A stretch of 32,000 nt of DNA, taken from NCBI GenBank assembly GCA_003144275.1, contig NJBF01000004.1, positions 1 through 32,000 on the forward strand. Direction: 5' to 3'. Positions 8,071-28,300 of this stretch are shown here, piece by piece (within the stretch, counting starts at the first letter, position 1; each line of letters begins with the position of its first letter). The DNA is from Candidatus Heimdallarchaeota archaeon B3_Heim. GTDB taxonomy: Archaea; Asgardarchaeota; Heimdallarchaeia; Hodarchaeales; Hodarchaeaceae. The position numbers were made by a program, and so were the translations under genes. A model generated the notes under the pieces. That model made no database searches, was not told the origin of the DNA, and worked only from the letters and a program-made list of their open reading frames with translations.

Positions 8071-8475
8071 ATGCAATTTAGAACATTTGGTTGGATCGCA
8101 CGGCAAAATCCACACATTCGCTTGACCGAAAGTGAAACTATTGATGATAATCGGTTTATTTTTAGTGGCCTTAAAGGAAAATCGGTTGAGACACCCGTTA
8201 AAGAACGAAAAGACTGGTTTAAGAAAGGGGAGCTGTGGCCGACGTTAATTTTGGTTGAAAAAGCATGGGATGAGGAAACAGGTGCACGGACAGAACATTC
8301 GTTTGTTCGCATTTTCCGGCATGAAGACGGCGCCATATTGGATATTCTTGTAGCTTTAAGCATGGACACCGCTACACTTCTTGCCCACGACTTTAAAGTA
8401 CCATTATTTAGTGTGACCTGTTCACGAAAAGGAACTCGGGGAACTGCTCAGCGCATACACATGGATATCTTATAA
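8071..8475 (+). CDS. Hypothetical soluble protein (134 aa)
   Basis: Protein-like composition; fills the gap before the convergent operon; preferred over the antisense ORF 7998-8369. No family recognised. Confidence 0.6.
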   Translation: MQFRTFGWIARQNPHIRLTESETIDDNRFIFSGLKGKSVETPVKERKDWFKKGELWPTLILVEKAWDEETGARTEHSFVRIFRHEDGAILDILVALSMDTATLLAHDFKVPLFSVTCSRKGTRGTAQRIHMDIL

Positions 8476-8504
8476 ATCCAATTCATCCAGTGAATCTTGG
8501 TAGC

Positions 8505-8750
8505 TTATTCTTCACGCAATAAGGTAGTATATTTTGTAACGGTATTGATTGAGCGGACAAACCCCTCAGCATCAATGAAGAGAATTCGTACATGGGAGGG
8601 ATCCATATCGATTCCGTGTGTATCCACGAAGATGTCTAGACCAGTGAGATCAGGTTGTAATTCAGAGACAGGTACAGACAACGCAAATGTCTTATTACAT
8701 GCAGTACAGGGTTCTGTTCGCAGGCGTAGATTATCTGACATAGATTTCAT
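8505..8750 (-). CDS. Small putative Zn-binding protein (C15-x2-C18...H45...H53), last gene of the receptor operon
   Basis: CTAC, DTH and HVRILFIDAEGFVRS. ATGA overlap with the stop of the 993-aa gene; AAGGA upstream. Confidence 0.75.
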   Translation of the reverse strand: MKSMSDNLRLRTEPCTACNKTFALSVPVSELQPDLTGLDIFVDTHGIDMDPSHVRILFIDAEGFVRSINTVTKYTTLLREE

Positions 8751-11728
8751 TCCTTATCACTATCATCAAGAAATTCGGATTCAAAATCACCCATTATACT
8801 ATCGGTTACATCATCCATATCTGTTTCAATTTCCTCTAAAATCTCCACAGTTCCAGAGATAAACAGACGGAATTCTTGAATCTTTTGATTGATGATTTCT
8901 TTGTCTTCACCAGCAATAATATAGTTCTTAATATCTTGCATGCCTTCTTTGATTTCTTCTTGGAAGTTATGTGAGACTTCAGTCCACTTTTCACGCATCA
9001 GAAGCATCATAAACAAGACTCCCTGCCGAGGGGTTTCAGGAGTATGTTCTAACGATAATGTAGACACCCACTTTTGAGGTAAACTCGCAACAGGATAGGC
9101 AAAAGTAATTGCTGAACAGCTAATTTCTTCAATGGTAAAGTCAACATAGGTGACCATATCTTCAGCCCGAGTTTGCATGACGAAATCCACAGTATTATTG
9201 GCTCTATCAACTAGTTCTTTCAAATATTGATAGAAATGCCCAATCAGGGAAGGCTCCCAAAGGAGGGTACTGGTGATTCCTTCACCTTGACCATAGGCTG
9301 CCACAAAACCAAACATAGCCTCTTCCCCGAGGTACGCTAGACGTTCGCCACCTCTTAATGCAACGTCGAAGCGTCTTCTACGTACAGTTCGCAATCTCCG
9401 TCTTTGAGTAATTTTAATTGCAGCAAATAATGAAATTATGATGGTAGTGATTATAGTTTCTGTTATAAACAGGCCTATTGCTGTGCTGACAAAAATACGA
9501 GTAATATGAGCATCTATAGGTCGGTTTTCTGAACTAATACTGTTACCATCATTATCTATGGCATTAATTCGAAATTCAATTCGTTCACCCCCAATTACAC
9601 TAGTTGAAAGACGGATGAAGTAAATTCCACCATCTTCATCAAGATCAAGAGTAATCGGTTCACCCCAGCCAGATCCCTTTCTCTTTTCTAATGTAACTTC
9701 AGCTATCCCGCTACCTCCATCGACCGCTTGAACCCAAATATTCAATTGACCTGGGATAGAATATTTAGATTCCCTGATCTGTACTTTGGGAGCAACAGTG
9801 TCCTCAAGCACAATAATTTGGGTTGCACTATTCGTATTTCCTTGTTTATCAAGGACAGTTACATTGATGGAATAAGTGTTTAGATCTCCATAGGTATAGG
9901 GTAATTTTAACGCTCCACCTGGGGTGGAAGGGGTTGATCGAACTTCAAATAACCCAGTTAAACTATTTCGACTTAATTGAACGCTTGAATAATCAATCAA
10001 TCCTGATCCATCAGGATCATTTGTTATAACAAGAGATCCGTTAGCAAATCTAGCAGCCAGAAAAACTCTATCTATATCCCCAAAAGGGTCTGTGGCAGAA
10101 GTAGTAACAAAAACATGGCCTTCCTCAATGGTACTGGGGATAATTTGATTGATCTGTATTTCTGGTATCACAATATCCATTGATGAAATAGTGGAAAACC
10201 CTGAATAGGATTTCGAATTTCCCTGGGTATCACTAAGGAGGATATTAAATTGAAGATTACTTTCATATCCTACCTCTAATTTCACCTGAAATAGCGTCAC
10301 ATTTCCCATTGTAGATTTGTTAGTCATAGGTACTGATTGAGATTGTAAACCATTAAGAGTGTAGTTTAATATTGCTTCCTCAACACCAAAACCCCAATCA
10401 CTAGCATTAATGCTTAATATGACAGTACCATTGCCAAAAAAGTGAACAAAATCAGCATTAGTAGGATCTAATTCACTGATGATTACGGGAGGAGTATAAT
10501 CCCCTATTGTCTCCGAATATACCCCTGTGGTGAAAGAATTCCCTGTACCATCGAAGATGACAAATTTGTAGGATAATATATCACTGACATTAACACCAAC
10601 ACTTTTTTGCCAATAAGTCTGATTATATCCCGCGGAGGTAATATTGGTATTTATTTGATATTCCAAACTTGTATTTGTTTGAATATTGACTGAACCAGAA
10701 CGATTATAGAAAACTGTAACGTTTTTTATTGAACTTTCCCACGTACCCTCACTGAAATGAGCCCAGAAATTATACATGGAAACATCAGCGGTTCTTTGCA
10801 ACCCCACGTCTGTAGGTTCAGGTGGACTGTTGTCTGTGACATCAGTTATCCCTATGATTTCAATATCATCAAACCACACATCAAAATACTCATTCCAGTA
10901 TTCACGAGTGTTTAAATAAGTCCCTAATTCTAATGTATAATTTGCAAGATCATTTCTAGGGACATGAAAACTCCCTGTAAAACTAAACCATTGTTCGTCA
11001 TAAATAACAGATGGACCTACACGGTAAAATACGGACCCATTCGGATTATGGAGAGTACTGGGATTTCCCAACCAGAAATAAGTTTGATCGTCAGGAAAAG
11101 CAATATTACAGCGAATTTCTTGATAATCAGGTGAACCTTCTATAACAACTCCCGGTACCAATTCTGAGAAATTATCAAACGCAGGGGGATCATAAACATC
11201 AAATCGCCATTTGAAACTTATATTTATTTGATCATAGTCTTGTGAAACAGGAAAATCAAGTTGCCAACCAGCTGAAATTCCTTCAGAAATATTTTCATTA
11301 AGTGTATCATTTAAATAACCCCCATTACCAATTCTAACAAACAATGATTCAGAATCAAAATCCTCATCAGTAGGATAGATCGTCCCATTTTCATAAAGAG
11401 TTGGATCTGATAAGACTAAGGGATCTGATCCAAGTGAATCATTCCAGATATTGTTGACAAAAGTGAAGGCCTCATTATCATTATCTATATTTTTTGATAA
11501 TATGTTTGTAACGTTATCTTGCTGAATAGAAAAACGAGAAACTTGATCTGATTGAGTGAAGAACGTATCTTCGGATACTGGTACATTTTTACCTATAGAT
11601 TCATCTGTTATTTCATGTACAAGGTGAGTCTGTAATGTAGGAGAGGTGTTCATGTGCATTGTCAAGATAATAACGTTAGTATTGAATAATAGTAGTAGTA
11701 AAACAATATTTAGTCTATATTTAGTCAT
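8747..11728 (-). CDS. Single-pass membrane protein: CBM-like domain, Ig-like stalk, TM, degenerate longin/uDENN-like cytoplasmic domain
   Basis: Signal-like IVLLLLLFN; VWFDDIEI-terminated beta domain; DxxGN/DTVAP Ig-like motifs; TM at ~9410-9485; poly-Arg; cytoplasmic domain aligns by eye with the two upstream paralogues (WEP, LVDRANNTVDFV, CSA, LLMREKW, FQEE). Confidence 0.85.
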   Translation of the reverse strand: MTKYRLNIVLLLLLFNTNVIILTMHMNTSPTLQTHLVHEITDESIGKNVPVSEDTFFTQSDQVSRFSIQQDNVTNILSKNIDNDNEAFTFVNNIWNDSLGSDPLVLSDPTLYENGTIYPTDEDFDSESLFVRIGNGGYLNDTLNENISEGISAGWQLDFPVSQDYDQINISFKWRFDVYDPPAFDNFSELVPGVVIEGSPDYQEIRCNIAFPDDQTYFWLGNPSTLHNPNGSVFYRVGPSVIYDEQWFSFTGSFHVPRNDLANYTLELGTYLNTREYWNEYFDVWFDDIEIIGITDVTDNSPPEPTDVGLQRTADVSMYNFWAHFSEGTWESSIKNVTVFYNRSGSVNIQTNTSLEYQINTNITSAGYNQTYWQKSVGVNVSDILSYKFVIFDGTGNSFTTGVYSETIGDYTPPVIISELDPTNADFVHFFGNGTVILSINASDWGFGVEEAILNYTLNGLQSQSVPMTNKSTMGNVTLFQVKLEVGYESNLQFNILLSDTQGNSKSYSGFSTISSMDIVIPEIQINQIIPSTIEEGHVFVTTSATDPFGDIDRVFLAARFANGSLVITNDPDGSGLIDYSSVQLSRNSLTGLFEVRSTPSTPGGALKLPYTYGDLNTYSINVTVLDKQGNTNSATQIIVLEDTVAPKVQIRESKYSIPGQLNIWVQAVDGGSGIAEVTLEKRKGSGWGEPITLDLDEDGGIYFIRLSTSVIGGERIEFRINAIDNDGNSISSENRPIDAHITRIFVSTAIGLFITETIITTIIISLFAAIKITQRRRLRTVRRRRFDVALRGGERLAYLGEEAMFGFVAAYGQGEGITSTLLWEPSLIGHFYQYLKELVDRANNTVDFVMQTRAEDMVTYVDFTIEEISCSAITFAYPVASLPQKWVSTLSLEHTPETPRQGVLFMMLLMREKWTEVSHNFQEEIKEGMQDIKNYIIAGEDKEIINQKIQEFRLFISGTVEILEEIETDMDDVTDSIMGDFESEFLDDSDKE

Positions 11729-14700
11729 TAGAATTCCTCCTGCATAACTTCGTCATAATTAATTCCAGCATATAATTTGTTGAAAGAGAGCATTAATCGT
11801 GATACATATTCACGTAATTCTCGTGCTTTTTTCCCTATCTCAATAGGATCTTTTTGTGTTTCAATCATGTCACGTATCTCCCGAAGCTTTTCAGTTAATT
11901 CGTCTTGGAAGACTAAGAGATTATCTCCCCATTCTTTCCTAAGTAAAAGGACAATTGTTAAATTTTCTTTTCCGCCACGAGCTTGTGGATTATCTATTGC
12001 AAATGAATAGCCTAAAGCCGTACACTCATAACTCCCAGTTGAGAAATCAAAAGTCCCAGTTCTTTCGGTTTCATCTATCCCAATAAATTCCAAAGTTGAA
12101 AACGCCTTGTCAGAAAGATCTAGCATAACTTGTTCTTGATCTTCAAGTAAGGCGGGTTCCCAAATCACAGGGACAGGTCCTTGAATCTGATCAAAGAAAT
12201 TAACAGTAACCCCAAGAGCGTATTCATCCATTTGAGTGAGAATGACTTCACGAGAAATCTTCTCACCCTCATCGAAGATTTTCTTCAAATCATATCCTTC
12301 GGTTCTAGAAGTAATTCTAATCCCTATAATGATTGCAGAAATTAAAATAATGGCTCCAAACAGTAAGACGTAGGGATGAAAAACAAGAGGGGGTAAGCTA
12401 CCGTCAACAGGTAGATTTAGTGACTCTAAATCACCTTGATCATAGATTTTCCAATTGCCCGTCTTATCAGCAAGTTTTATCTGAATACTATAAGACTTTG
12501 AGGAGACGAGATCGAAGAGGTCGAGCGGTAAGGTTGTAGTAGCATAATAGTAAATACTTTGATCTTGATCTACCCTACTTCCTTTACCAACTTGCTTAGT
12601 AAGATTTACCCATTGAAAAACTTGTGTACCTTCTAGATTAAAAATTCCTACTTGAACATACTCAACACCGAAGCCTAATTCATTTACTGTTACATTAATT
12701 GAGAGGATTCGATCAGTGTTTTGGGTTATTTTTATTGATTTAATTCGAGGAGCAACATGATCTTCTATAGTAACTTCAATAGTGCTATTCACATTATTCC
12801 CTGCATTATCAGCTATCAAAACTGTGAGCCTGTAAGTTTTCCCTACGGTCAACGTCCCGTTCCAATCAAATCGTAGCTCTGCTCTCTTATTCAGAAATTG
12901 TGGTGAGGCAGCTATTGTCATTAATGACGTAGTAGTAACATTCATTTCTATATCTGTTATTAAAATCCTAACATAACTCGTATTAATGCCAGACCAGATT
13001 TCATCTTGAATAAAAACAGAAATTACGACGTCTCCATCCGTTATGTTACTTAAATCGTCAATTTCATCAAGATTTAAGTAGAAAACTGAGATTTCAGTAC
13101 CAGCTTTCAAATTGAATTTGGGATCATATGGGTCATAATCTGCTCTGACAGTGAAAATTTCGGTAATTGTATTGGTCTTAAGTAGATCCCCAACAATATC
13201 TGGATACTGGTCTGGTTTCACCTGATCAGAAATCTCAAGAGAAAATGTAAGAGGGTCATCTTCATCGAAATCAAACTGAAAATAACTTAAACTCAACCCT
13301 TCGCTATTATTTATTTCTTGATTATACGTATATCTGATATAATAGCGATAGACACCCGATGGAAGAATGATGTATTCAATATCTCCAAGAAAATTGTAAA
13401 ATACATCAGGACGTTTATCAAACAGTACGACAGTATCCACACCACTTCCATTCCAAGCTTCCGTGTCATCAGATATATCTACGACAATTAAAATAGTTCC
13501 ATTTCCAAAGTCATATGTATAAAGCTCCACAACTTGTGGTGCTTTGTCGTCAATCCAATAAACAACTAGATCGCCTACTTTAGGATCCATGTCAATGTCT
13601 AACCATTGATACTGAATCTGTGCTTCTGAAAGGCTAGTATTAGTATCAATTATACTAGTTATAAGATAAGTATGATTATCGGGACCGAAGCTAAAATCTC
13701 TAAAGTGTGTCCACGATACGTTTTCCCTTAAAGTGCCATTATTTAGAAGAAGGGTGTAAGAAATAGAGCTAGGATTGACAATCTCATCACTAATTAAATA
13801 ATTATAAGTAACGTAAATATCTGACCATGTCCCATGTGAAGCTGTTATATTTGCTTTTAAGGTAAGTACAATCTTATCCCAAGATATTATTATACTATAG
13901 ACCTCGGTTGACACATAGAGGACATCAAAATCAATTTCCGTAGTAATTTCCATTACAGCGAAGTCCACCGTACCTCCATAATCTGTTAAATCACCATTCC
14001 AGACTGCAAATCCATTCACAAAACTAACAGAATAATTTTGCGCGGTTTGAAAAGCAAATACGAGTGCAGTTCCATTGAATGGAGATTGATCAAAGGAATG
14101 TCGGCCATAAATATATAAGGTTCCTTCTTCTCCGTAATTTACAAAGAATTTATCTACACCTATATTATCCCAATCTGATAAATTAGAATATTGAATATTT
14201 GAATAAACAAACTTTATTTCCTCCCAGATTAAATCAACTGAAACACTAGGATTTTCGATATCGATCACAGAGGAATTAGTAAACTTTGTAATTCCATAGG
14301 TGGAATCATCAATCTCTTTAATTCTATACCCGTAAATTCCAGTATCAAATTGAATCAAACCTGAATAAACACCAAAACCAGCCGTCATTGGTACTTCTGA
14401 CGCAATAAACCAAACATCATCTTCTACTACAATAATCTCATCAAAAGTAAGGTTTTCATCATGAGCCCAGGATGCACTCAAGAACACAGAAGTCTGATTT
14501 ACCGTGGATAGCCTTCTATCTAATTCCTCGGGAAACATATCGATTATCAGATACGTCCAAGTAATGATGAGGGTAAAATTCGCATCGCCAGCAGTTTTAT
14601 CCACAAATAGAGTCCCCTGAGGATCAAAAGCCGATCCACTTGTAATGATACAGTGAAAGGGGACAATGCTGGCATTCAGATGTGTATAATTTATGGTAAA

Positions 14701-16341
14701 TATTCCGTCTAAATCATCCCCGTTTGTACCATCAGTTAAATTGTACCAACTTTCGGTTCCGAACTTGTAAGAAACATTCCCTCCCATTGCAGAAGAACCA
14801 TCAGAGGCATAGAATACACCTAATTCTAAATTCCAAGATTCATTAACATCTACCCATAGAGCCTTTTGGCTAGGTAAAATATTACTCCCAGAATTTTCAT
14901 TATTATCAGTGTAAATATAATCAAAAACTAAGAGGTCCCAAAATATAGTCATATTAGAGGGTTTATTAATTTCTTGCGATGTTCTATGTCCACGGACGAA
15001 GAAAAGTAGGCTATAACCACTTGTAGGCGTGAGATCTGTTGCGGATAGTGCAATACTTCCGATTCCAAAGTCATTAGTTTCCTGATATAATAATGCTGTA
15101 GGATCTTCAGGCCTATTTGGATTCTGATATCCAATTGAATGTCTACGTGGTGAATTAGTACCTTGTTCAGAGTCAAAAACATGAAAAGTGACATTTAAGG
15201 TATCATTGACATTTAAACGGAATTTTATATTCTCTTGGGTTCCAGACACTAAGTCGTCATAGCTGATAGGAGGATAAGATTCAACAGTCAATTCTTCAAG
15301 GATAACATAATAGATAGTTCCCTTTGCAGTAAACTGAACGGTGGTATTATCTGTTATTCCTTCAACAGTAGTGACTGATACGATTAATTCATGATCACCC
15401 TCATTAAATTCTTGGGATACACTAACAGGCAGACTATAATTTAAGGTATATCTCCCCTCGGCAGTAGTGTTGGAAATAAATCCAGCAAAGGTAAGTTCAC
15501 CACTAGTTGTTGTTGATTTAACTATAGCTTTTGGATTCGAATTTGTGATATTAGGTAAAAAGTCTACAAAATAGAAGTTAGAATTAGTTGTATAGTTTTT
15601 AACCTGTATTTCAATAGTAAAAGGTTGCTCATTATCAAGCTTATTGTTAAATTCGGCAGCAGGTGAAACACTTAAAATATCAACCCTTACATCTCGCATG
15701 GGAAGAGATATTGAATCACTTGAAAGATGTCCCGAAACATTTGTGTACATGATAAGATCGTAAGAGCCTAGTTCCAGTGTTGTTAAGAATGAATTATTTA
15801 GAGTAAAAGTGAGGGAATATTGATCTATAAATGTACCATTCTCATCTTGCAGTTCAACCCAACCTCCAGACCAATCTGTGATCTTAAAATTACTACCATT
15901 GGTTATAATTAGGTTCTCAATATCCTCTGAACCGTTCACACCTATTGCACCTTCTATTGTGCAATTAAGTATAAATGTCATTGAGGTTGCATTCTTTTCC
16001 ATTGCCTCTGGAGATATTTTCGTAATGGTAAGGTCATCACTCGCACTAATTCCAAATCTTGGAGAGAAAAAGGGATTAGTATGAAACGCGTTTAAAGAAG
16101 AAAGATCAGATTCGTGATTATCAGTAATTTCAGAAGATGAAACGGATTCTTCGAGTTGAACAGAATTACTTGACATTAAACGGGGGAGAATTTTTGAGAC
16201 TGGATTTTCGTTCCGAAGTGAGGAATTTTCTGAAATACCCTGTTGGGGAGATATCACAGCAAAAACATTGAAAAGCAGAAGTAGCACTATTCCCAATGAG
16301 TACTCTCTCTTTTTTACCCTAGGCACAGCAAGTAACATCAT
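11728..16341 (-). CDS. Single-pass membrane protein: beta-rich ectodomain, TM, FLCN/SMCR8-like longin (uDENN) domain with ARG motif
   Basis: Signal-like IVLLLLFN; many N-x-S/T sequons; TM at ~12310-12375; cytoplasmic GVTVNFFDQIQGPVPVIWEP ... GYSFAIDNPQARGGKENLTIVLLL. Confidence 0.88.
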   Translation of the reverse strand: MMLLAVPRVKKREYSLGIVLLLLFNVFAVISPQQGISENSSLRNENPVSKILPRLMSSNSVQLEESVSSSEITDNHESDLSSLNAFHTNPFFSPRFGISASDDLTITKISPEAMEKNATSMTFILNCTIEGAIGVNGSEDIENLIITNGSNFKITDWSGGWVELQDENGTFIDQYSLTFTLNNSFLTTLELGSYDLIMYTNVSGHLSSDSISLPMRDVRVDILSVSPAAEFNNKLDNEQPFTIEIQVKNYTTNSNFYFVDFLPNITNSNPKAIVKSTTTSGELTFAGFISNTTAEGRYTLNYSLPVSVSQEFNEGDHELIVSVTTVEGITDNTTVQFTAKGTIYYVILEELTVESYPPISYDDLVSGTQENIKFRLNVNDTLNVTFHVFDSEQGTNSPRRHSIGYQNPNRPEDPTALLYQETNDFGIGSIALSATDLTPTSGYSLLFFVRGHRTSQEINKPSNMTIFWDLLVFDYIYTDNNENSGSNILPSQKALWVDVNESWNLELGVFYASDGSSAMGGNVSYKFGTESWYNLTDGTNGDDLDGIFTINYTHLNASIVPFHCIITSGSAFDPQGTLFVDKTAGDANFTLIITWTYLIIDMFPEELDRRLSTVNQTSVFLSASWAHDENLTFDEIIVVEDDVWFIASEVPMTAGFGVYSGLIQFDTGIYGYRIKEIDDSTYGITKFTNSSVIDIENPSVSVDLIWEEIKFVYSNIQYSNLSDWDNIGVDKFFVNYGEEGTLYIYGRHSFDQSPFNGTALVFAFQTAQNYSVSFVNGFAVWNGDLTDYGGTVDFAVMEITTEIDFDVLYVSTEVYSIIISWDKIVLTLKANITASHGTWSDIYVTYNYLISDEIVNPSSISYTLLLNNGTLRENVSWTHFRDFSFGPDNHTYLITSIIDTNTSLSEAQIQYQWLDIDMDPKVGDLVVYWIDDKAPQVVELYTYDFGNGTILIVVDISDDTEAWNGSGVDTVVLFDKRPDVFYNFLGDIEYIILPSGVYRYYIRYTYNQEINNSEGLSLSYFQFDFDEDDPLTFSLEISDQVKPDQYPDIVGDLLKTNTITEIFTVRADYDPYDPKFNLKAGTEISVFYLNLDEIDDLSNITDGDVVISVFIQDEIWSGINTSYVRILITDIEMNVTTTSLMTIAASPQFLNKRAELRFDWNGTLTVGKTYRLTVLIADNAGNNVNSTIEVTIEDHVAPRIKSIKITQNTDRILSINVTVNELGFGVEYVQVGIFNLEGTQVFQWVNLTKQVGKGSRVDQDQSIYYYATTTLPLDLFDLVSSKSYSIQIKLADKTGNWKIYDQGDLESLNLPVDGSLPPLVFHPYVLLFGAIILISAIIIGIRITSRTEGYDLKKIFDEGEKISREVILTQMDEYALGVTVNFFDQIQGPVPVIWEPALLEDQEQVMLDLSDKAFSTLEFIGIDETERTGTFDFSTGSYECTALGYSFAIDNPQARGGKENLTIVLLLRKEWGDNLLVFQDELTEKLREIRDMIETQKDPIEIGKKARELREYVSRLMLSFNKLYAGINYDEVMQEEF

Positions 16342-19300
16342 TCTATGAACTCCTTTTTATACTTCTTTCTGAAAACGATCATTGCTCTAGTTAAGAAATT
16401 ACGAGTAATTTCCATTTCTTTTTGTACCAGTTTTGAATCAGCATTTTCCTTCATAAGATGATGTATATGTTGTAAACGTTCAACTAATTCATTCATGAAT
16501 CTATTTATATTTTCCAGATTACCCCAAGGAGGCCTAACAACAAAACTAAGGGATAAATTTTCCTGACCTCCACGAGCTTCAGGATTGGCAACAGCAAACG
16601 CATATCCAAATACCGTACATTTATCAGCACCAACTTGGAACCGGAACGTAGCATGTTTATCATCCTCAGGATTAGATACAAATCCTAGAGTCGAAAATGA
16701 TCTGTCTGAAAGGCTAGCGAGCATTTTTTCAGATGAACGAAGCTTTTCGGGATAAACAATTATAGGTACAGGCCCTTTCGTTTGATCAAAGAAGCTAGCA
16801 ACTATACCGATTGAAACACTATCATTTTCTTCCCAAACTTCATTGTCTGATATATTCACCATTTCTGTCAAAACTTTTTTCTTATCAAATCCACTGATTG
16901 TCCTAAAGCGTTGAACCGTAATAAAACCAATACTGAACAGTATGGTAAAAATTAGGAGAATTACGATAGGATTATTAAGTAACTCCTCTGCACTTGACGG
17001 AATATTATATCCATCATCACTCAGTGATAATGAAGATAATTTCAATGTAGAATTTATTTCGCTATTGCTAATAATTCGAGTGTTTCCCTCTGAGTCAGAG
17101 AGAGATAACGAGAATAGAACAGATGTATCATCAATGAAGTTGGTAGGTATTGAAAAATCACCTAGAAATTTGGCATTATATCTAGAAGTTGTTTTTTGTA
17201 GAGAAGAACCACTTCCAACAGACAAGACTTTCGTTAAATCAATATATTTCCACTCCCCTCCAACATAATATCCTAATACTGCCTTGGAGATTTCTGATCC
17301 ATCATCTGCGGTTGCGATATTAATAGAGAATGAACCAAAACCTAGATAAGCGAAAGTACCACCTACTAATTTGGGACCAGCTCTATCAAGAATTTCAATA
17401 TCGTCAGTAATTATCTGAACATTTCCGACTATGTCGGAAATTCGAATTTCATACTCTAAGAGAGTTCCAACATCAAACACTGAACTAAAAGAATATTCAC
17501 GTCCCCTATCTACATTTCTATAACTCATCGAATAGAATTCAGACCAGTTTCCTGTAGATGGATCTTTAAAAGCTATAACTGCACCAGATAATCCAGACCA
17601 GATATCTGTTGAATTTACTGATACTGTAATTCTTCCATCTTGTGAACTAGAGAAATTTATGAACACAGGGTCATGAATAGGGGTAGCACTATCAGAATCA
17701 AGAAATTTTTCAAACACATGGCTAATTTCATTCCCTTGATTATCTTTCAGAGAAATCGTATAGGTAACGCTCTCATTAAACTTGAAATTATTTCTTGGGG
17801 TACTACTATCTGTAGTTAAACTACCATAGAACATTGGACCGGAGCTAGTATTATATTCTGTCAGGTATAGAGGATCTCCTGGTGGAAAACCAAAAAGAGT
17901 CAATTGAACAGTAATATTAGCTATGTCGCTACCGAAATAACTTTCTGGAGAGTCATCACTTGCGATAACAAGGAAACCTATGGATCCATTTCCCCAATCT
18001 AATAGCTCATGATAAACTAAAAGTGGATCAATATTATCTATCCATTCGATAGTAATTTTAGCCTTAGGTTGTTTCACAAGACCGCTAGAGAATGTACCTC
18101 TCAGATTTGTCTTGTAATCAACTGACCAATCAATATGATAAGTATGATTTAAAGCATGTATCTCGAAGTCGGTGAAGTAAAATTGAGTTCTATTTGACAA
18201 GAAAATCTGCCCATCTCGATACAAAGAATATTCAAAATGAGAGGAGTCAAGAGATTTACCATCTTTCTCATAGAAAATAGAGAGAGAGACATTCAATGAT
18301 TCACCAGGATAATAATCTAATTGATCAGGGATAAAATCAACAAGAATTCTATCCCATCTAATAATCAACCATCGACTACCAGATTCACTTAATACTAGAT
18401 ATCCTTGACGTTCTTTTGTACCATTCAGTCCATGCAAGTCCTCAAGAATTCCATTAACTAAAAATAAGGTATCTCCAGGTCTTGTTGTATATTCAGGAGC
18501 AATAGGAACGCTAACACTATCATTCCAATTCCTTGGATTGTAAAAAAGGGACGAAGAATTTGAAAAACTTCCATGTTGCATTTTAATTATTCCGTTGAAA
18601 GGGGTGTCGTCATAATCATAGTAAGCTACAATTTCAACAAATGCTGTTTCATTAACATTAAATCGTATATTGGATCCCCATGGTTGTGCAAATCCAATTT
18701 GGAAAATAACTTGATCCCAAATAATTTCGACTTGTATTTTGCCATCATCTGCTTCAAAGCTAGAGATTCCAAATCTAGGATCAATAAATTGGCTAATACT
18801 ATAAAATGCATTTTCAACAAGTCCATTAGAGATTAGATTAGGGAAGGAAACTTGATAGCCATCCCATTGGGAACTGGGGTAAGCTGTAGATATATTCTCA
18901 TTCAGAATAAATACTCTAACACCAGTCAAATCTAAGGTTGAATCGTGTGCATATCTTACAGATACATTAATAGTTGCTCCTGTTAAACGTGGAATTCTAT
19001 AATCTTCAGCCCATATATCAACTATAAATTTCGTCCAAATAGATGTATTTTGCGAGTAAGTTGCACTAGTCTGGTTAACAAACGAGAAAACCTCACCAGG
19101 ATAGTCAGGATAAGTAGAGTAATATCTATAATCGTACCCATCAGAAGTTGCTTCCTCTGTTGCTCTCACGGTTACTGTTGCTTTTACAACCTCACTAAAC
19201 TGAAACTGGAAATCGAGTTTTCCATCGGCAAAATTAGGAGCGGAAGGAGTATCAATTACAAATAGATTGCCAATAGTCGCTGTTCCATTGCTAAAGAAAA

Positions 19301-22300
19301 TGGGGAGTAAACTACCATCGCCATCTGTATGAACAAAATTAGTCTGATTAAATTGAATCCAATCTTGACCATCATACTGCCATAATGTTATATTAACCTG
19401 GAAAACACTCCCAGCAGCATTTATTCCAGAGCTAGCAAATTGAGTATTGTAGGTTAAGGTGTAATTACCATCAACATTAAGAACAGAGTTATTAATGTCA
19501 GTTGGATCATCGTCTACATCAGATGTTGCTGCTTCCATTTCATCCCACTCTAAGTAGAAACGCCATGTACTATCACTGAAACCAAGTTGTTTTTCTTTGT
19601 TATCTTCGACATAAGCAATAAAAAGCTGACGTATTACCTGATTAGAAGTAACATTAATTGTAATAAACGAGGTTTGATTTAGGGCGCTTTTTTCCTGTTC
19701 TGCACTATCCCAAGGAGTTTTCCAGTATATATTCTGCGGATCTGTACTTTCTACAGTAGGATTATCGAATGCATATATCCGATATCTAATGGTAATTGTC
19801 GAACCAACTGAGACTCTAAACGTCCAATCCAGTACTTCAGTAGAATTTTCATAACCAAATGTGAATAAACCATCTGAACCAAAATCTGGAATGTAAACCC
19901 ATTCTAGTCCCAGTAGAAGTGCGAGATCTTTACTTGTAAGTATGACGCTATTTTCCTCACTAGACACTGTTACTTGATGACCATCAATGTCGCTTATTGT
20001 TAAGCTTAGTGCGATCTTTCCAATACCTAATTGTGTTGCATCTTCAACCTCTAATACAAACCTGAGATAGTACTTCCCTTGAACTTGATTGATATAACCC
20101 CACTCTAGGAATGAATTTATTGTTGCATTGAGATTGATAACTTCAATATTCTCTAAGAATATAGTAATGAAATTATCTGTGAGATTAATATTTGTAACGG
20201 GTTCATTTCCAAATCCGATATCATCTAAAACAGTGAAATTCAGAGTAAAAGGTGTCTGTTCATCAGGATCGAAGAAATCTAGACCACCAGGCCAAGTTCG
20301 TATAGAATCAATAATCATTTTAAGGTCATGGCCTTTAATAGTCACTACTCCCCATTCCCAGAGATTGGACACAGTAGATTGTACTTTGAAGCGAATGGAT
20401 TGATTGCCTAACCATTGGATTGTTGTATTAGCGGCAAATAAGTCAAAACTAAAACCATAACTCCCATTAAGGGAGTTGAAAAAACTGCCAATATCAATTT
20501 GGTTGGTGTAATCAGAACCTTTGATAGACAGTTCTTCTAGAGATGTACTTAGAACATAATCCAATGATTGGTCCCCTTCATCTTCGCGAACATCGTAATT
20601 GACTGATATAGAGAAATCACCATCTATTTCAAACAATTGCATACTAGAGGGAACAATGGCATCAATTACAATGTCATAATATGTTACTCGACCTAAACTA
20701 ATATTTGAGTCAACCACATGATAGTACAATCCAGAGGAAAACAGCCAATTAAACTCAATATCTTTTAATCCAGTTGTTAAACCCTCTGGAAGCTGAAATG
20801 TTAGATTATGATTGCCATTCGCTAGATGAACAGATTGGATAAAGGTAGCATCAGCTCCATCAATTGTAAGATTTACATTAAAATCAACTAAGTCTGTAGT
20901 ATAAGGACTATCATCGTTCTCGAAATAAAGAATCACATTCATTAACGAATATTCTGGATTGTTAGTTTCAACTATATCAAGATCATCAGATACATATGAG
21001 ATTTCTAAATCGTGATATGTAACTACATTGGGTTTTGTAAAACTAAAAGCGAGAGAAATGTCCGCAGGAAGATCACTGACAAACCAGTTGATTTGGATGG
21101 AATATGTTGAACCTACAGAAACAGAAGTTAAACTATCTGGTAAATCAACAATTAAAATAAGAATATCATCTGACCAGCTAATACCACCTAAAATAGGAAC
21201 ATTTATACCGTCGATTGCTACATTAAACTGTGAAATATTAAGAAGACGATCGATTATTGCTTGAGTCTCATTAATTTGTAATCCGTCAAACTCAAAGTTA
21301 AATGTAATATTCCATGTGCCAGGATCATCAATTTCTACATGACGAGGAATAGTAGTGACTAAATTTACAAAGTTAAATAAGTGATAGGTAATATCTGCTG
21401 TATAACTATATTCATTGTTAACATTATCATAAACAATAATAGATACAGTTTCATTTTGTCCAGGAGTAATGACAGAATCGAAATTTGAGTCATTTGAAAG
21501 GCTCCAAGCGGTGAATCCAGTAGATACAATATCCTCAAACAGTGTAGAAATAATAGTAATATTTTGGATTCCTGATCCTAAACCATCATCAGTTTGACCA
21601 GAGAGGATAAGCTCCTTTCCATTCTGGTGAAGAATAGTCGTATCAATAACGTAACCCGCTTCAAATGGATTTGAATTATCCAGTCGAATAAGAAGGTATG
21701 CCTGCGCTTGATTATTTACTTGGTCGTAAACCGTTAAAGTAATATTAACTACACCATCATTATCATCTGAAATATTTATACCTAAATCAGAAAGAAGATT
21801 ACCATCTCCATCAGCACCAAGGTTTTGTGAAAAATAGGAATCACCACTGGTACTATCCCAAGACATATATACACTGAAAACTCCACTTAGGGAATCACTG
21901 GGAATTGAGAAAATATCATACCCACCTGTTAATTCTCCCTGATCGTACCAATTATCCAGATTATCTAGTTCATTACTCGATGGATCATAAACAGGATTAG
22001 AAACATCATTAAATGCAACAGTAGGATTTAAAAGGTCTCGAATAACCTGTAAGGGAATCTGATAGGTGTTCCCCACTTTATCATAGATCAAGAAAAAGAC
22101 TGTGGCGTTTGTATCATCAGTAGAAGTTAATTGATAAATTCTCGACCCAGAAGTGAGATTAATTTCTGGATCATTACCAATTAGTGGATAAGTAGTAGTA
22201 GCAACTCCAGCATCATTTACGTCACTATCAGATGTTGAAATCGTAATTGTAACTGACTGAGGAGAGGAATCCATCAAATCGGAATACCAAATCTTATCAA

Positions 22301-25300
22301 GATCAGCAGAATGAACATAAATTGAACCTCCATCATCAATAGATACTATACTTCCTGAAGGAGCTTGTGTATCACGTCTCACTTCCAAAGAAACAGAATC
22401 AATATTACCACAGTTATCGATACTAGTGAAGATCATGTTCCCAATATCAGTAGATGTGTTGGAAATAGTATAGGTCCAAGCATAGGGAGTAGTAGAATCA
22501 TTTAATGCTAGACCTCTGTTAAAAAAGGAGGGAAAGAGAACAAATTGTATACCAGAATCATCAATCTGTGCTCCATCATCTGTAACAACTGAAAAATCAA
22601 CAATAATATCGCTAGGCATTTGATTACCATACCATATAACCTGAGTCCCATTAGCAGGATAATAAGCAAAATCGGAGATTTCAGAAACAATAACTGGATT
22701 AACCGTTGGAACAGTATTATCCTCATAACAATTAATTGCTAAAATTCTAGTATTTCCTACCCAATCGATAATTATTAATGTAATCTGATCATCAAGACCA
22801 GCATCATCAGTGAATCCAACGAAATAAGTTAATTCATACATGCTATCATATGTCGTGTCTTCAGGAGATTCACCACCAAAATCAGAGCTGCCGCTAACTT
22901 TTTGCAGATCTGATATACCATCTGAAGTAGTTAATTGGATGGTAAAGGAGTCATTCATACTCTGATCATTTGAATAGAAAATACTTGAACCATCATAATA
23001 TAGATGTTCTGAGTCCTCAATAACATCCACAATGGATGGAACAGTCGGAGCTGTATTATCAAAGGTACATGGAAGGTTTACGGTATTATTGTTCCCAACA
23101 TTGTCCACAACAGTTATTATTATTTGATTATCTCCACCAGCGTTATCATTTTGATTCACAGTATATACCATCTCGTACATTCCACTATAAACGGTATCTT
23201 CAGGAGTTCCTCCAAAATCTAAACTTCCTATAGCTTTTTGTAATCCCGAAAGAGAATCAGTCGAAGTTAGTTGGATTGTAAAGCTTTCTGCCATAACCTG
23301 ATCATTGGAGTAAAACAGATTGGTTGTCGTTAGATTATATAAGTAGTCAGATGTCTCAATAATGCTTACTATTACAGGTTGTGTAGGTTCAACATTATCA
23401 ACAGAGATCGTAAGACTAACGCTGGTGGGATTGCCTACGTTGTCCCATACGGTAATACTAAAGGCAGGTTCTAATTCTCCTTGGTTAACTATGAACGATA
23501 ATTCATAACCGCTTCCACCATAAGTACTGTTTGTAACAGTATCCCCAAATTCACTAGCATTGGCTTTTAAGAGATCACTCCCAGTATCGATAGCCGTAAC
23601 TTGAACAGTAAAACGTTCATTCATAATTTGATCATTGGAATAGTAAAAGGTTTCACTACCTGATTCATAGAAAAGATATTGGGATCCAACTTCAACAAGA
23701 ACATCCACAATATCTAAACTTGTAGGACCAGTATTATCAAGGACGCAAGAAAGAGAAGTGGCAATTGAATTGCCAACTCGGTCATAAACCGTTATAATAA
23801 TTTGATTATCCCCACCTGCGGTTTCACCATCGCTTAAAGTATAATAAAGTGAATATTCGGATGAATAGGAAAGATTAAATGGAGATTCTCCTCCAAAATC
23901 AATACTTCCAGTAGCATTAAGAAGATCTGCTCCGCTATCGCTCGTAGTAAAGTGAATCGTAATGACTTCACTCATTTGATAATTATTGGAATAGTAAAAG
24001 GTAGGGGCATTGTAATATAAATACTCTGAATATTCATCAACTGAGGTAATCACTGGAACAGAAGGATTGTCATTATCCAACTGAAGATCAACACTAAGAG
24101 AGTTATTAACGTTTCCTACTAGATCATATACATTAAAGGTGATGAGAGCGCCACCTGTCTCACTTTGACTCACGGTATAATTAATTTGATATCCACTATC
24201 ATAAGTAAAATCACTTGGAACCTCACCGAATGCGCCAGTACCTGTTAAATTGTATAATCCGGCTCCACCTACGTTATCTTGAGCAAGAATGGTAATAATG
24301 AAAGTATCGGACATTGGTTGATCATTTGAGAAGAATAAACGAGTTGAAGAGTTATCATAATAGAGGTATTCACCATTTTCTACAAAGCTAACAATGGACA
24401 GATTTTCGGGACTTGAGGTATCACGAACCACTTGTATAACCATATAGGTTTCACTTCGTCCACTAGCATCATAAGCCGTCGCATTAATCCAATAACCATT
24501 AGGTGTTGCATTCGTAACATTGAAGGTACCAACAAGGGTCTCATTTTGTAAAAGAATTGATAAGAAAGGTTCAAACCGTGTGTATCCTCCTATCATTCCA
24601 CTCCCACTGTCAAGAGCGGTAATCGTCACATTAAAGTTAGCTGGATTCGATCCCATTAAGGTGCTGTAATACAATTTGTTATTGGGTGTATCAGCGAAGA
24701 TAGTCCATTTATATGGAATAAATTCACTCAGAGATTGAAGTGAGACAATGGGATCTTCTTCGTCTACGAATAGATTTACTTGTATCCAGCTACTATTGAT
24801 TCCAGCTAAATTCCGTGCTCTAACGAGGATACTACGATTTCCTGTGTTTCCAATATCATAATTAATCAAGGAATTGGTGGCATTGTAATAATCAGTGTTG
24901 ATAATATTATACCATCTCAGCAATTCTGTTGAATTATCATAGTTTTGCTCTGTACTGTTTTGATCGCTTTTTATATAGATATCAGTGATTTTTGAGCTCG
25001 ATTCAAAGATAAAGGTTAGATTAAAATCAGACCCATCCCAATCATATAAGAACGGATTAGGAATCCCTGGTTCATTTCCGAGGACATCAATGCTAAAAAT
25101 GATTGGTCCCAAAGTATCTAAACGAAGGTTAAAACCATAGAGACCTGAACTAAAAATGTGTGTCTGAATATTCCCCGCCTCATCTTGGACACGAATATCA
25201 ATTGTGTTTTCTCCATTAAATAGAGTATCATTCCATGAAGAGATAGTCCAGTTTGTGACATAATCGCCAGCTTGGGTTGAGTCAAATATAACATACCAAC

Positions 25301-28300
25301 CTTGGCCGTCATCTGTTTGATATTCCGCTTTAGTCAATCTACTAGCTAACGAATGAGTCTCGTTGTTCCTCAGAAAATCTACATCAAATGTCGTTAGATA
25401 ATCCGCGAGATTGTAATAAGGAGTTAATCCACCTGCGGTTGGATCATTATATTCTATTTCTGGGGGAGTATCATCGTGCCAAATCTGAACACTAGCTGAT
25501 TGAGTGTTGTTGACGTGATCCCAACAATAGACTGTAAGAGTAATATTAGCGTTATTTATGATATTAATTTCATTTTCATCATTCCAAGTTGACCCTACTA
25601 GGGAATCGACTGTAAATACTTGTTGTGTTGCAACGTAAGAGGTTAATACTTCATCATATTGCGAAAATGCAAAGCTTGTAGTAGTAATCCCACTATTATA
25701 AGTTCCTAAATTATCAATCGCTGTTCCACCATATGATGCAATTCCTCCAACAGAATTGTTCCAACCTGAAGTGGGGAAATCAATAGTTAATGAAGGAGCT
25801 GTATTATCCTTCCTACAGGTTAAACCAATCGAATTTCTATTGCCAACTAGATCATATAACCAGATTGTAAGAGTACCATCCGAAACATCGTCATTTTGGA
25901 CAATATTGTATTCCAGTTGATAATATGTACTGTAAGTTGAATTTCCAATTCCTGTATCACCAAATTCGTCATCTCCCGTTGCATTCTTTCTTCCTACTCC
26001 AGAGTCTGTCCCAGAAATATGAATTTTGAATGTGGCACTCATAGGTTGGTCATTGGAGAAAAATAAATTAATTCCATCATAATAAAGAAAATCTGATTCG
26101 GGAGACTCAAGAAGAGCAACAATAGCTAAACTTTGAGGCGGTGTATTATCAAGGTTGGTTGTTAAAGCCACACTTGCAGGATTACCAACATTGTCCCAAA
26201 CTGTTATACTAAATGCTGGTTCTGAATCTCCTTCATTAACAACGAAGGATAATTCGTAACCACTGGGTCCGTAGAAGCTCTCTGAAACACTGTCCCCAAA
26301 TTCAGTAGCATTAGCTTTTTGTAAATCACTTCCCGTGTCGATAGCCGTCACTTGAACTGTGAGGCTTTCTGCCATTGTTTGATCATTAGAATAATAGAAA
26401 GTCTCTCCACTACTGTCATAATATAAAAATTGTGCTCCGACTTCTTCTATTACATCATCTATTGAAACACTTGTTGGACCGGCATTATCTACTACACAAC
26501 TTAAAGAATAAGTTCGTGAATTGCCCACTTGATCATAAGCTGTAATATTTATCCAATTATCAGCACCTGCAGTTTCACCATTACTTACGGAATATGTAAG
26601 GATGTACTGAGAATCGTATGTAGAATCCTCAGGTGTTTCTCCTCCAAAATCAGTACTACCGTTTGCTTTAAGTAATCCCGATATTGCATCGGTAGTGGTA
26701 AATTGAATGGTTAAGCTATCACTCATCGGTTGATCATTGGAATAGTAAAATGTAGGCGCATCATAATAAAGATATGCTGAAGACTCAATAACAGCAGTTA
26801 CAATGGGTAGAGAAGGATTACTATTATCTAGAATGCAACTGATGGATGTTGAATTGGCATTTCCTACTCGATCAAAGACCTCTATCACTATCTGATTATC
26901 TCCACCTGCATGTTCGGTCTCCCCGACAGTATATACAAGATCATATTGCCCAAGATAGCTAATATCTTCAGGTGTTCCACCAAAATCAGTGCTACCATTT
27001 GCTTTCAGGAGCCCCGCACTTAAGTCGTCAGTCGTTAATTGAATAGTAAAAGGATCATCCATTGGTTGGTCATTAGAATAATAGAAAGTCTGTCCACTAA
27101 TGTTGTAATATAAGTACTCAGACGACTCAATTATTCCTATAATGGTAGGTTCTGTAGGTGATTGATTATCAAGCACTAGAGTCAGACTAACAGAAGAATT
27201 AACATTTCCTACACGATCAAAGACCGAAAATAATATTGCTCCACCACCAGTTTCCCCTATACTTACAGTGTAGGAAATAAAATATTCACCTACGTAATCA
27301 GAATCTGATGGTTGTTCGCTAAACGCAAGGCTACTAGTAAGATTTTTCAACCCTGCACCTCCTCCATTGTCCGCAGATAGTAAGGAAACATCGAATAAAG
27401 CATTCATTATTTGATCATTTGAATAATAAAGAGTTGTGATGGAACTATCATAGTAAAGATATTCACTTGAATAACTCACACTCTGAATCGTTATCCCAGA
27501 TGGAGGTGTATTGTCTTTGACTAAGTTTAATGTTACAGAATCAATATTATGTACCCTATCATAAACTGTAAATGTTATTTGATCTCCTGATGCTTCTTCA
27601 TCGTAACCGACTGAATAATTTACAAGATAATATCCTTGATACGAGGTATCTGAAGGGGTGTCAGTAAAATCTGTGCTTCCTTCAACTTTTAATAATCCAC
27701 TTCCCACACCATCTTGACTTGTGATATTAACACTGAATAATTCATTTTGTCCAAAGTGCTGATTTGCATAATAGAGAATGGTAGCTGAATAGTCAAGAAA
27801 TTCACTGTTTTCGATGATTTCATTTATAGGATCAATTATGGGAGCAGTATTATCTAAAGTAACTGGAAGAAGAATACTACTATTTACATTGCCCACTTTA
27901 TCATATACAAAGACTTGAACCACTCCACCGCCAACAGTTTCTGATTGAGAAACAGTATATTGGAGGTCAAATGTCCCTGATGCATTTGTTGTTATAACAG
28001 GCGATTCTCCAAAGGCTAATGAGCCCGAGACATTTTCAACACCACTCAATAATTCAAGAACATCAATATGGAGCGATAGGCTTTCACTCATTGCTTGATC
28101 GTTGGAGTAAAATAAGACTGTTCCACTATAGTAAAGGAGATCGCTGACATCAGGGCCAGTTAATGAATCGAGTGTTACGAAATCTGGGGCATCGTTATCT
28201 AGGATACAATCTAAATTGAGAGAATTACTATTACCAACGTTATCAAATATCGTTAAGATAATATAGTTGTCAGATGCATATTCATTTGTGTTGAGAGTAT

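Follow-up and report, generated by a model that had tools for sequence, protein, structure and literature searches.

The 1,537-residue surface protein considered here is encoded on the minus strand of the window (the whole stretch analyzed, 32,000 nucleotides at positions 1 to 32,000 of contig NJBF01000004.1 of Candidatus Heimdallarchaeota archaeon B3_Heim), and it ends in a cytoplasmic tail that is most likely a membrane-tethered, folliculin-like GTPase-activating protein (GAP) or regulator of Rag-like GTPases, for which we infer catalysis, target, and sensor role. The tail is almost certainly homologous to the GAP-class longin domains and anchored on the cytoplasmic side of the membrane. To its being an arginine-finger GAP for Rag-like GTPases we give a probability of roughly 0.55, a proposal based on its motifs, on the joint loss of these in degenerate copies, and on the gene neighborhoods of its sisters. 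The archaeon belongs to the Heimdallarchaeia (Hodarchaeales-type), and the protein as a whole is a surface protein with a single membrane pass, type-I-like in layout and heavily N-glycosylatable. Its gene lies between those of two paralogues, a giant that leaves the window and a protein of 993 residues, and the original prediction, made from the window sequence, had singled out the motifs that its tail has in common with that of the giant.

Fold of the tail and its structural relatives

The tail family was recovered as 160 cluster representatives in a search of a library of 1.84 billion proteins. Its members range from 80 to 5,809 residues in length, the shortest being fragments, and the longin tail is always found at the extreme C terminus, with a hydrophobic helix directly ahead of it in nearly all full-length members. 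The members P0111, P0114, P0130, P0129, and P0134 have no upstream membrane helix, have lost the Arg of the candidate finger described below, and have mostly lost the Gly-Pro (GP) motif; these could be gene fragments, or derivatives that are soluble and non-catalytic.

The AlphaFold2 (AF2) model of the tail, built from 105 tails, has a predicted local distance difference test score (pLDDT) of 91.5 and the longin topology β-β-α-β-β-β-α-α with a five-stranded sheet, in which the strands occupy tail residues 36-45, 49-56, 87-95, 100-111, and 119-129 and the helices occupy residues 64-78, 130-155, and 160-186. In a ranking against solved structures with Foldseek and VIA-align, the top match was the longin of a Lokiarchaeota Roadblock-Longin protein (PDB 8yqg; Z 14.5, 140 residues, root-mean-square deviation (rmsd) 2.8 Å), which is an Asgard longin like the tail and is dimeric, but which is 13% identical to it and is fused to a roadblock domain instead of a membrane protein. 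Human folliculin (FLCN) is the best eukaryotic match (8dhb_J, Z 13.1, rmsd 2.6 Å over 134 residues), with the other two FLCN entries at Z 12.1 (6nzd_H) and 12.1, and it is followed by Lst4 (Z 11.6) and by chains of the C9orf72/SMCR8 complex and of GATOR1 (each up to 11.4), the SMCR8-C9orf72 and NPRL2-NPRL3 (GATOR1/SEACIT) longins spanning Z 9.8-11.4. Lower in the ranking stand DENND1 (Z 9.5), which together with other GEF-type longins spans Z 9.4-9.5, and the SNARE and TRAPP longins (VAMP7, Ykt6, Sec22, and TRAPP; 8.7 or less), and the tail is therefore structurally nearer to the GAP longins than to those of guanine nucleotide exchange factors (GEFs) or SNAREs, by differences in Z that are modest.

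Predicted-structure neighbors in the ESM Atlas belong to the Folliculin, SMCR8_C, C9orf72-like, Avl9, and NPR2 Pfam families. In sequence-profile scans the Pfam Folliculin family (PF11704) was the sole family to recur, matching 23 of the 105 tails at E<0.1 (best E 2.4e-4), always under the curated cut-off, and the match covers the ARGG loop wherever its coordinates were obtained, namely in the tails of the 1,537-residue protein, the giant, and a fourth paralogue on contig C49. A six-frame scan of the whole genome returned only three Folliculin matches, all under the cut-off, and these are the three Arg-bearing tails; Pfam NPR2 had no match in the genome at E<=1. The protein stops about 10 residues past the last longin helix, and a DENN domain is absent.

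Motif conservation across the paralogue tails

The last 198 residues of the 1,537-residue protein and the last 193 of the giant are 38% identical (61% positives, E 1e-48), a resemblance far beyond chance, and all of the motifs named in the original prediction are present in both: GYDLKK in the former and GFDKKK in the latter, FFDQIQGPVP and FFDQTKGPVP, LSDKAFSTLEF and LSDRSFSTLGF, the pattern CT..GY.FA..NP.ARGG.ENL, and the Trp. The Arg codon was correctly placed, being CGT at 11977-11979 on the minus strand and encoding R1455 (tail R116), the candidate arginine finger; human FLCN presumably reads ...DSLARG... at R164. Strand 2 of the model opens at tail residue 49, i.e., at G1388-P1389. In the available text of a 2025 survey (PMC12290439), a Gly-Pro at the start of strand 2, beside the arginine finger, is described as common to the GAP longins FLCN, NPRL2, SMCR8, and C9orf72 and as absent from the non-GAP longins FNIP2, NPRL3, adaptins, TRAPP, and DENND, and the pair of GP and Arg is reported in some Asgard longins as well. 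The structure of SMCR8 (10.1101/2020.04.16.045708) places its R147 in the β4-β5 loop of the longin, aligned to FLCN R164.

Conservation of the motif had been taken to imply selection on function, and a deep alignment of 68 non-redundant tails (<60% identity) bears this out. The top columns are R171 (99%), G49 (97%), P52 (94%), G38 (91%), R116, F44, and F80 (90% each), and E120 (88%), so that the candidate finger is the fifth best-conserved of 198 columns, compared with a top-residue frequency of about 30% in its flanks. The GP block (tail 44-52) has a mean of 2.93 bits and the LSDxxFS block (tail 70-76) one of 2.81 bits, against a core mean of 1.89, and the P-x-A-R-G-G-x-E-N block (tail 113-121) has 2.68 bits, compared with 1.13 and 1.38 in the flanks at 95-105 and 128-138; the ARG motif is thus better conserved than the residues on either side of it. 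The GP motif, R116, and R171 occur together in 121 of 142 tails, and six of the seven tails without the Arg are also without GP (Fisher p 3.6e-7, for relatives that are not independent). The role of R1510 (tail R171), in the last long helix, is probably structural.

The orthologues of the 1,537-residue protein and those of the giant form separate supported clades in the tree of tails (Shimodaira-Hasegawa-like approximate likelihood ratio test (SH-aLRT) 97 and 98), and the motifs have therefore been retained on both sides of an old duplication. Since synonymous divergence is saturated between orthologues, only the nonsynonymous rate (dN) and amino acid identity are usable, and by both measures the tail of the 1,537-residue gene is far more constrained than its ectodomain (dN 0.15-0.18 versus 0.45-0.78; identity 75-80% versus 32-51%). 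Stronger constraint on the tail than on the ectodomain is also seen in the two neighboring genes.

The tail of the third paralogue (about 8750-9361) is 27% identical to that of the 1,537-residue protein (E 2e-13, BLASTP). The family of this paralogue has kept the longin fold and the equivalent of R171, whereas ARGG is replaced by GxGQG and there is no GP. Its 42 orthologues are 58-94% identical, and those that carry a label all come from a Hodarchaeales/Heimdall-type metagenome-assembled genome (MAG). The extreme end of this tail (8750-8830, minus strand) carries a conserved acidic ...IMGDFExEFLD, which is doubled in the orthologues P0161, P0170, and P0189 and which, from its sequence, looks like a short linear docking motif. 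A complex prediction for the tails of the 1,537-residue protein and the third paralogue scored 0.00 with the partner poorly folded, and says nothing either way.

Rag-family GTPase neighborhoods and competing readings

The genome contains about five strong Gtr1/RagA-family GTPase genes, and at the fourth paralogue two of this type, encoding 735 and 311 residues, flank the tail-coding end. Among eight sampled family members from other assemblies, a Gtr1/RagA-type gene for 586-796 residues lies directly past the tail-coding end in all eight, and one for about 300 residues is also nearby in five, so that together with the fourth paralogue all nine sampled sister genes adjoin a Rag-family gene. Universal adjacency, as the eight sampled loci might have suggested, was ruled out by a survey of four genomes of the same genus, in which a Rag-like gene lies within about 8 kb at 7 of 20 tail loci, compared with a random background of 1.5% in this genome; the Rag link is therefore strong, not universal. 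The recurrent pair consists of a protein of about 300 residues (GTPase plus C-terminal domain) and one of 586-796 residues with a Pro/Ser/Thr-rich linker, and a Pfam scan assigned no family to the C-terminal halves of the long proteins. By analogy, the pairing of a long and a short Rag-like protein is reminiscent of a RagA/RagC-type heterodimer.

In the mechanism that we propose, the tail would be anchored to the inner side of the cell membrane, where it would bind a Rag/Arf-like small GTPase, and R1455 would enter the nucleotide pocket and thereby speed GTP hydrolysis. The tail would probably dimerize with a second longin tail, which might be its own or one from the neighboring paralogues, including the Arg-less third, much as FLCN pairs with FNIP, NPRL2 with NPRL3, and SMCR8 with C9orf72. 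Through cell-surface contacts, the long Ig-like ectodomain may place or regulate the GAP activity, in the manner of a plexin.

Several observations weigh against a GAP that acts on Rag-like GTPases. With respect to the tail itself, the most conserved residue is R1510 and not the candidate finger, and R1455 agrees with FLCN R164 at the level of loop position only, not by residue superposition. The tail of the 1,537-residue protein scores 15.4 bits (E 0.017) against PF11704, below the gathering cut-off of 23.3 bits, and no FLCN, SMCR8, or NPRL2 chain turned up when the PDB was searched by sequence, either with the single tail or with profiles built on 105 and 122 tails, the matches being coiled-coil or chance; because these searches do not reach such chains, the link to FLCN rests on structure, motifs, and sub-threshold Pfam matches. 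Eukaryotic GAP longins, moreover, require a partner longin, for which the candidate here is the Arg-less tail encoded by the next gene. With respect to the neighborhood, no GTPase gene adjoins the cluster encoding the giant, the 1,537-residue protein, the 993-residue protein, and an 81-residue protein, either in this genome or in two relatives, about two thirds of the paralogues of the same genus are also without a nearby Rag-like gene, and the nearest Rag-like cluster on the contig of the window is about 38 kb from the 5' end of the giant. Finally, no ligand-binding module is recognizable in the ectodomain, the distal part of which is a plain Ig-like stalk.

The distant cluster on that contig (contig C87, 78000-92000) comprises three to four Gtr1/RagA-type genes (303, 334, 314, and 310 residues), those for 303, 334, and 310 residues making up, with the pair at the fourth paralogue, the five or so strong genes of the genome, and comparable clusters are found tens of kilobases from the giant (G208) or from a P1-like gene (G256) in two genomes of the same genus.

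One alternative is that the tail is a non-catalytic GTPase platform, either an anchor or scaffold for Rag proteins of the Ragulator kind or a GEF-type longin (DENN, Mon1-Ccz1, TRAPP), with the Arg and GP serving binding or folding. Most longin/roadblock platforms do bind GTPases without GAP activity (PMC10933270), Ragulator itself tethers Rags permanently to a membrane, GEF longins such as DENND1 also match the tail structurally at the Z scores given above, and the Rag neighborhood is compatible with any kind of binding. We nevertheless consider this alternative rather unlikely, given that the GAP-class longins rank structurally above the GEF and SNARE longins, that the GP motif is absent from the non-GAP longins in the survey text cited above, and that GP and Arg are lost jointly in degenerate subfamilies that retain the fold, as is expected of a catalytic pair.

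A second alternative dispenses with GTPases, making the longin tail an assembly, sorting, or cytoskeleton-coupling module of giant adhesin or surface-layer proteins that might, for example, dimerize the stalks or link them to the cell interior. The ectodomains do resemble adhesin and S-layer stalks, no GTPase gene adjoins the cluster of the 1,537-residue protein, SNARE longin domains work without GTPases (PMC10933270), and the invariant R171 and the LSDxxFS block are left unexplained by a GAP model. The enrichment of Rag-family genes at sister loci, both in the sampled members and against the random background in the genus, and the retention of specific GAP-longin motifs across deep clades make it improbable. 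That the motifs merely reflect recent common descent or fold constraint of two paralogues, with no functional site, is hardly credible: the two genes are neighbors in one operon and turn glycines and prolines are frequently conserved for folding, but the tails share no more than 38% identity and belong to different clades with their own orthologues, the motif columns are 80-97% conserved over the 68 tails against about 30% for flanking loop columns, and the third paralogue has retained the fold while losing exactly the GP and Arg motifs.

Surface protein, gene cluster, and comparison with known systems

The features of the protein and of its neighbors are collected in Table 1.

Table 1. Positions of the features discussed, in window coordinates except for the locus on contig C49
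Feature	Position	Strand	Basis or remark
Second paralogue gene (P0001), 1,537-residue single-pass surface protein	11728..16341	-	Open reading frame (ORF) list, translation
N-terminal hydrophobic segment, putative signal/anchor, about residues 14-32	16246..16302	-	Read from the translation, after a basic stretch
Distal ectodomain, residues about 36-594	14560..16236	-	No significant BLASTP match to the giant; AF2 all-beta
Membrane-proximal ectodomain, residues 595-1318	12388..14559	-	Homologous to the membrane-proximal part of the giant (BLASTP)
Single transmembrane helix, about residues 1319-1343, then basic residues	12313..12387	-	Hydrophobicity 2.3 before the tail; layout common to nearly all family members
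Cytoplasmic tail, residues 1340-1537 and stop, folliculin/SMCR8/NPRL2-type longin	11728..12324	-	AF2, structural matches, motifs
FFDQIQGPVP, GP motif at the strand 1-strand 2 turn, G1388-P1389 (tail 49-50)	12169..12198	-	G49 97%, P50 84% conserved
LSDKAFS block in helix 1 (D1411, F1414, S1415)	12097..12117	-	D72 87%, F75 87%, S76 78% conserved
NPQARGGKEN loop, strands 4-5, candidate arginine finger R1455	11962..11991	-	R116 90% conserved; loop between strands 100-111 and 119-129
R1510 (tail R171), last long helix	11812..11814	-	Most conserved family residue, 99%; also kept in the family of the third paralogue, which has no Arg finger
Giant paralogue, homologous tail with NPEARGG, Arg codon 16572-16574	16338..16919	-	Sequence comparison
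Third paralogue, 993 residues	8747..11728	-	Translation, BLASTP
81-residue ORF overlapping the stop of the third gene (ATGA), last gene of the cluster	8505..8750	-	Conserved in relatives
Rag-family GTPase pair on contig C49 (stretch 8500-26500, local coordinates)	10796-13003 and 13282-14217	- and +	Adjoin the fourth paralogue

The ectodomain, of about 1,280 residues, is acidic and poor in Cys and has many N-x-S/T sequons, with 3.35 N-glycosylation sequons per 100 residues over its whole length versus 0.5 in the tail. Pfam scans of the ectodomain gave nothing above cut-offs and no enzymatic or recognizable ligand-binding domain. In the AF2 model of residues 90-600 (pLDDT 80.6) the distal part is an all-beta chain of beta-sandwiches, for which the best Foldseek matches are the tandem Ig-like extenders of giant adhesins, an S-layer protein, and macroglobulin domains. 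The original prediction of an unrelated distal ectodomain holds for the N-terminal 590 or so residues, but not beyond them: residues 595-1300 are weakly but significantly homologous to residues 4223-4877 of the giant, counted in its window-visible part (22% identity over 756 columns, E 6e-13, BLASTP), and this membrane-proximal part has weak Ig-like Pfam matches to Big_13, Big_5, and DUF7743. A role as an adhesin or surface-layer protein with a cytoplasmic coupling domain fits equally well as one in sensing. The further proposal, of two sensors with different inputs feeding one output, likewise stands in part, in that both tails belong to one GAP-type longin family and the distal ectodomains differ, while the tails fall in separate old clades, the membrane-proximal 700 or so residues are common to both proteins, no candidate for a common output GTPase emerged for the cluster, and the sensing role is one that we infer.

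The four genes of the cluster follow one another on the minus strand in the order giant, 1,537-residue, 993-residue, and 81-residue protein, with stop/start overlaps ATGA, TAATG, and ATGA. The giant gene has an open frame of about 8,821 residues that reaches contig position 42803 or thereabouts, and the full-length orthologues of the 1,537-residue protein, from Heimdall/Hodarchaeales MAGs, have 1,475-1,554 residues. Close relatives of the cluster are found in MAGs labeled Heimdallarchaeota, Hodarchaeales, or Kariarchaeaceae, and the gene order, including the flanking lysyl-tRNA synthetase (LysRS), is the same in two relatives. The window also encodes the archaeal Cdc6/Orc1 and a class-I LysRS and has a GC content of about 35%. 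This GC content and the giant repeats had suggested a bacterial (Bacteroidota-type) adhesin, which is excluded by the archaeal Cdc6/Orc1 and class-I LysRS neighbors and by the Heimdallarchaeota relatives.

The 81-residue protein is 51-56% identical in two relatives, where it occupies the equal position, has invariant C15, C18, H45, and H53, and matched no family in a Pfam scan; as a small cytoplasmic protein, it may act as a partner for the tails. An ORF of 134 residues at 8071-8475 on the plus strand is 66-69% identical in relatives, with a nearly invariant C-terminal stretch and no Pfam family. Another large ORF, of at least 958 residues (contig stretch 32001-46000, local 11124-14000, minus strand), lies upstream of the giant gene and shares its strand, but is without a tail of the longin-tail family. 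No RNA run was listed among the sequencing runs containing the words of the sequence, which were two sediment-metagenome DNA runs, with a small share.

A profile of the tail has matches in 115 of 301 sampled genomes of the phylum. The tail is present in 19 of 20 genomes of the same genus, in 1-10 copies each, and in 20 of 29 and 8 of 11 genomes of two further families of the same class, while elsewhere in the sampled phylum matches are weak or none.

The closest functional comparator is FLCN/Lst7, the catalytic subunit of the FLCN-FNIP GAP for RagC/D, which like the tail is a longin that has, in addition to the GP motif, an Arg between strands 4 and 5, and which likewise is linked to Rag-family GTPases, though in the tail family the link is genomic. 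Lst7 resembles the tail further in being a longin alone, without a DENN domain, whereas in metazoan FLCN and SMCR8 a uDENN-cDENN-dDENN follows the longin. FLCN is soluble, has a partner of the FNIP/Lst4 type, and is located at the lysosome, whereas the archaeal tail has no established partner of this kind, is fused to a membrane helix and an extracellular stalk of 1,300 to more than 8,000 residues, and is presumably located at the cell membrane. SMCR8-C9orf72 and NPRL2-NPRL3 each pair an Arg-bearing with an Arg-less longin, compared with the two Arg-bearing tails and one Arg-less tail encoded by the archaeal operon, and they differ from the tail in being soluble and multi-domain and in acting on Arf/Rab or RagA/B.

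Within the Asgard archaea, the available text of two studies describes longins of the same phylum and longin class as the tail, namely those with the GP motif and Arg finger in equal structural places (PMC12290439) and NPRL2-like longins fused to two-component domains (Liu et al., 10.1101/2020.10.19.343400). A search of that text found no mention of membrane-anchored forms ("transmembrane" occurring 0 times), giant ectodomains, or a Rag-GTPase neighborhood, and the GTPase of the Asgard FLCN-like operon is given there by Liu et al. as not of the Rag family.

In its layout, the 1,537-residue protein can be compared with the plexins only by analogy of function, as both the fold of the GAP (RasGAP-like versus longin) and the descent are unrelated. 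Plexins cross the membrane once, and in these receptors, in the same order as proposed for the archaeal protein, a long Ig-like/IPT ectodomain is joined through one membrane helix to an arginine-finger GAP that acts on a small GTPase in the cytoplasm. A tentative picture, offered as a possibility that goes further than GAP activity on Rag-like GTPases, would be a prokaryotic receptor-GAP, in which a glycosylated giant ectodomain reports contacts through one helix to a folliculin-like arginine-finger longin that switches off Rag-family GTPases, and in which the dead tail joins the two catalytic ones in an assembly of the FLCN-FNIP or NPRL2-NPRL3 kind, the whole being a cell-membrane forerunner of the lysosomal Rag-FLCN/GATOR1 nutrient-signaling module.

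Folliculin, GATOR1, and C9orf72-SMCR8 are longin GAPs over Rag/Arf GTPases in eukaryotic nutrient signaling and disease, and Asgard longins with the GP motif and Arg finger have been known since 2025, with no indication of target or place in the available text of the survey. Here the GAP-longin signature is found on the cytoplasmic end of giant surface proteins, often encoded beside a Rag-family GTPase pair, which provides a concrete candidate pairing of enzyme and substrate (the tail and the neighboring GTPases) and places it at the cell membrane. Confirmation of the activity would mean that the link between Rag GTPases and longin GAPs predates eukaryotes and that it began as a transmembrane, receptor-like device and not as a lysosomal one.

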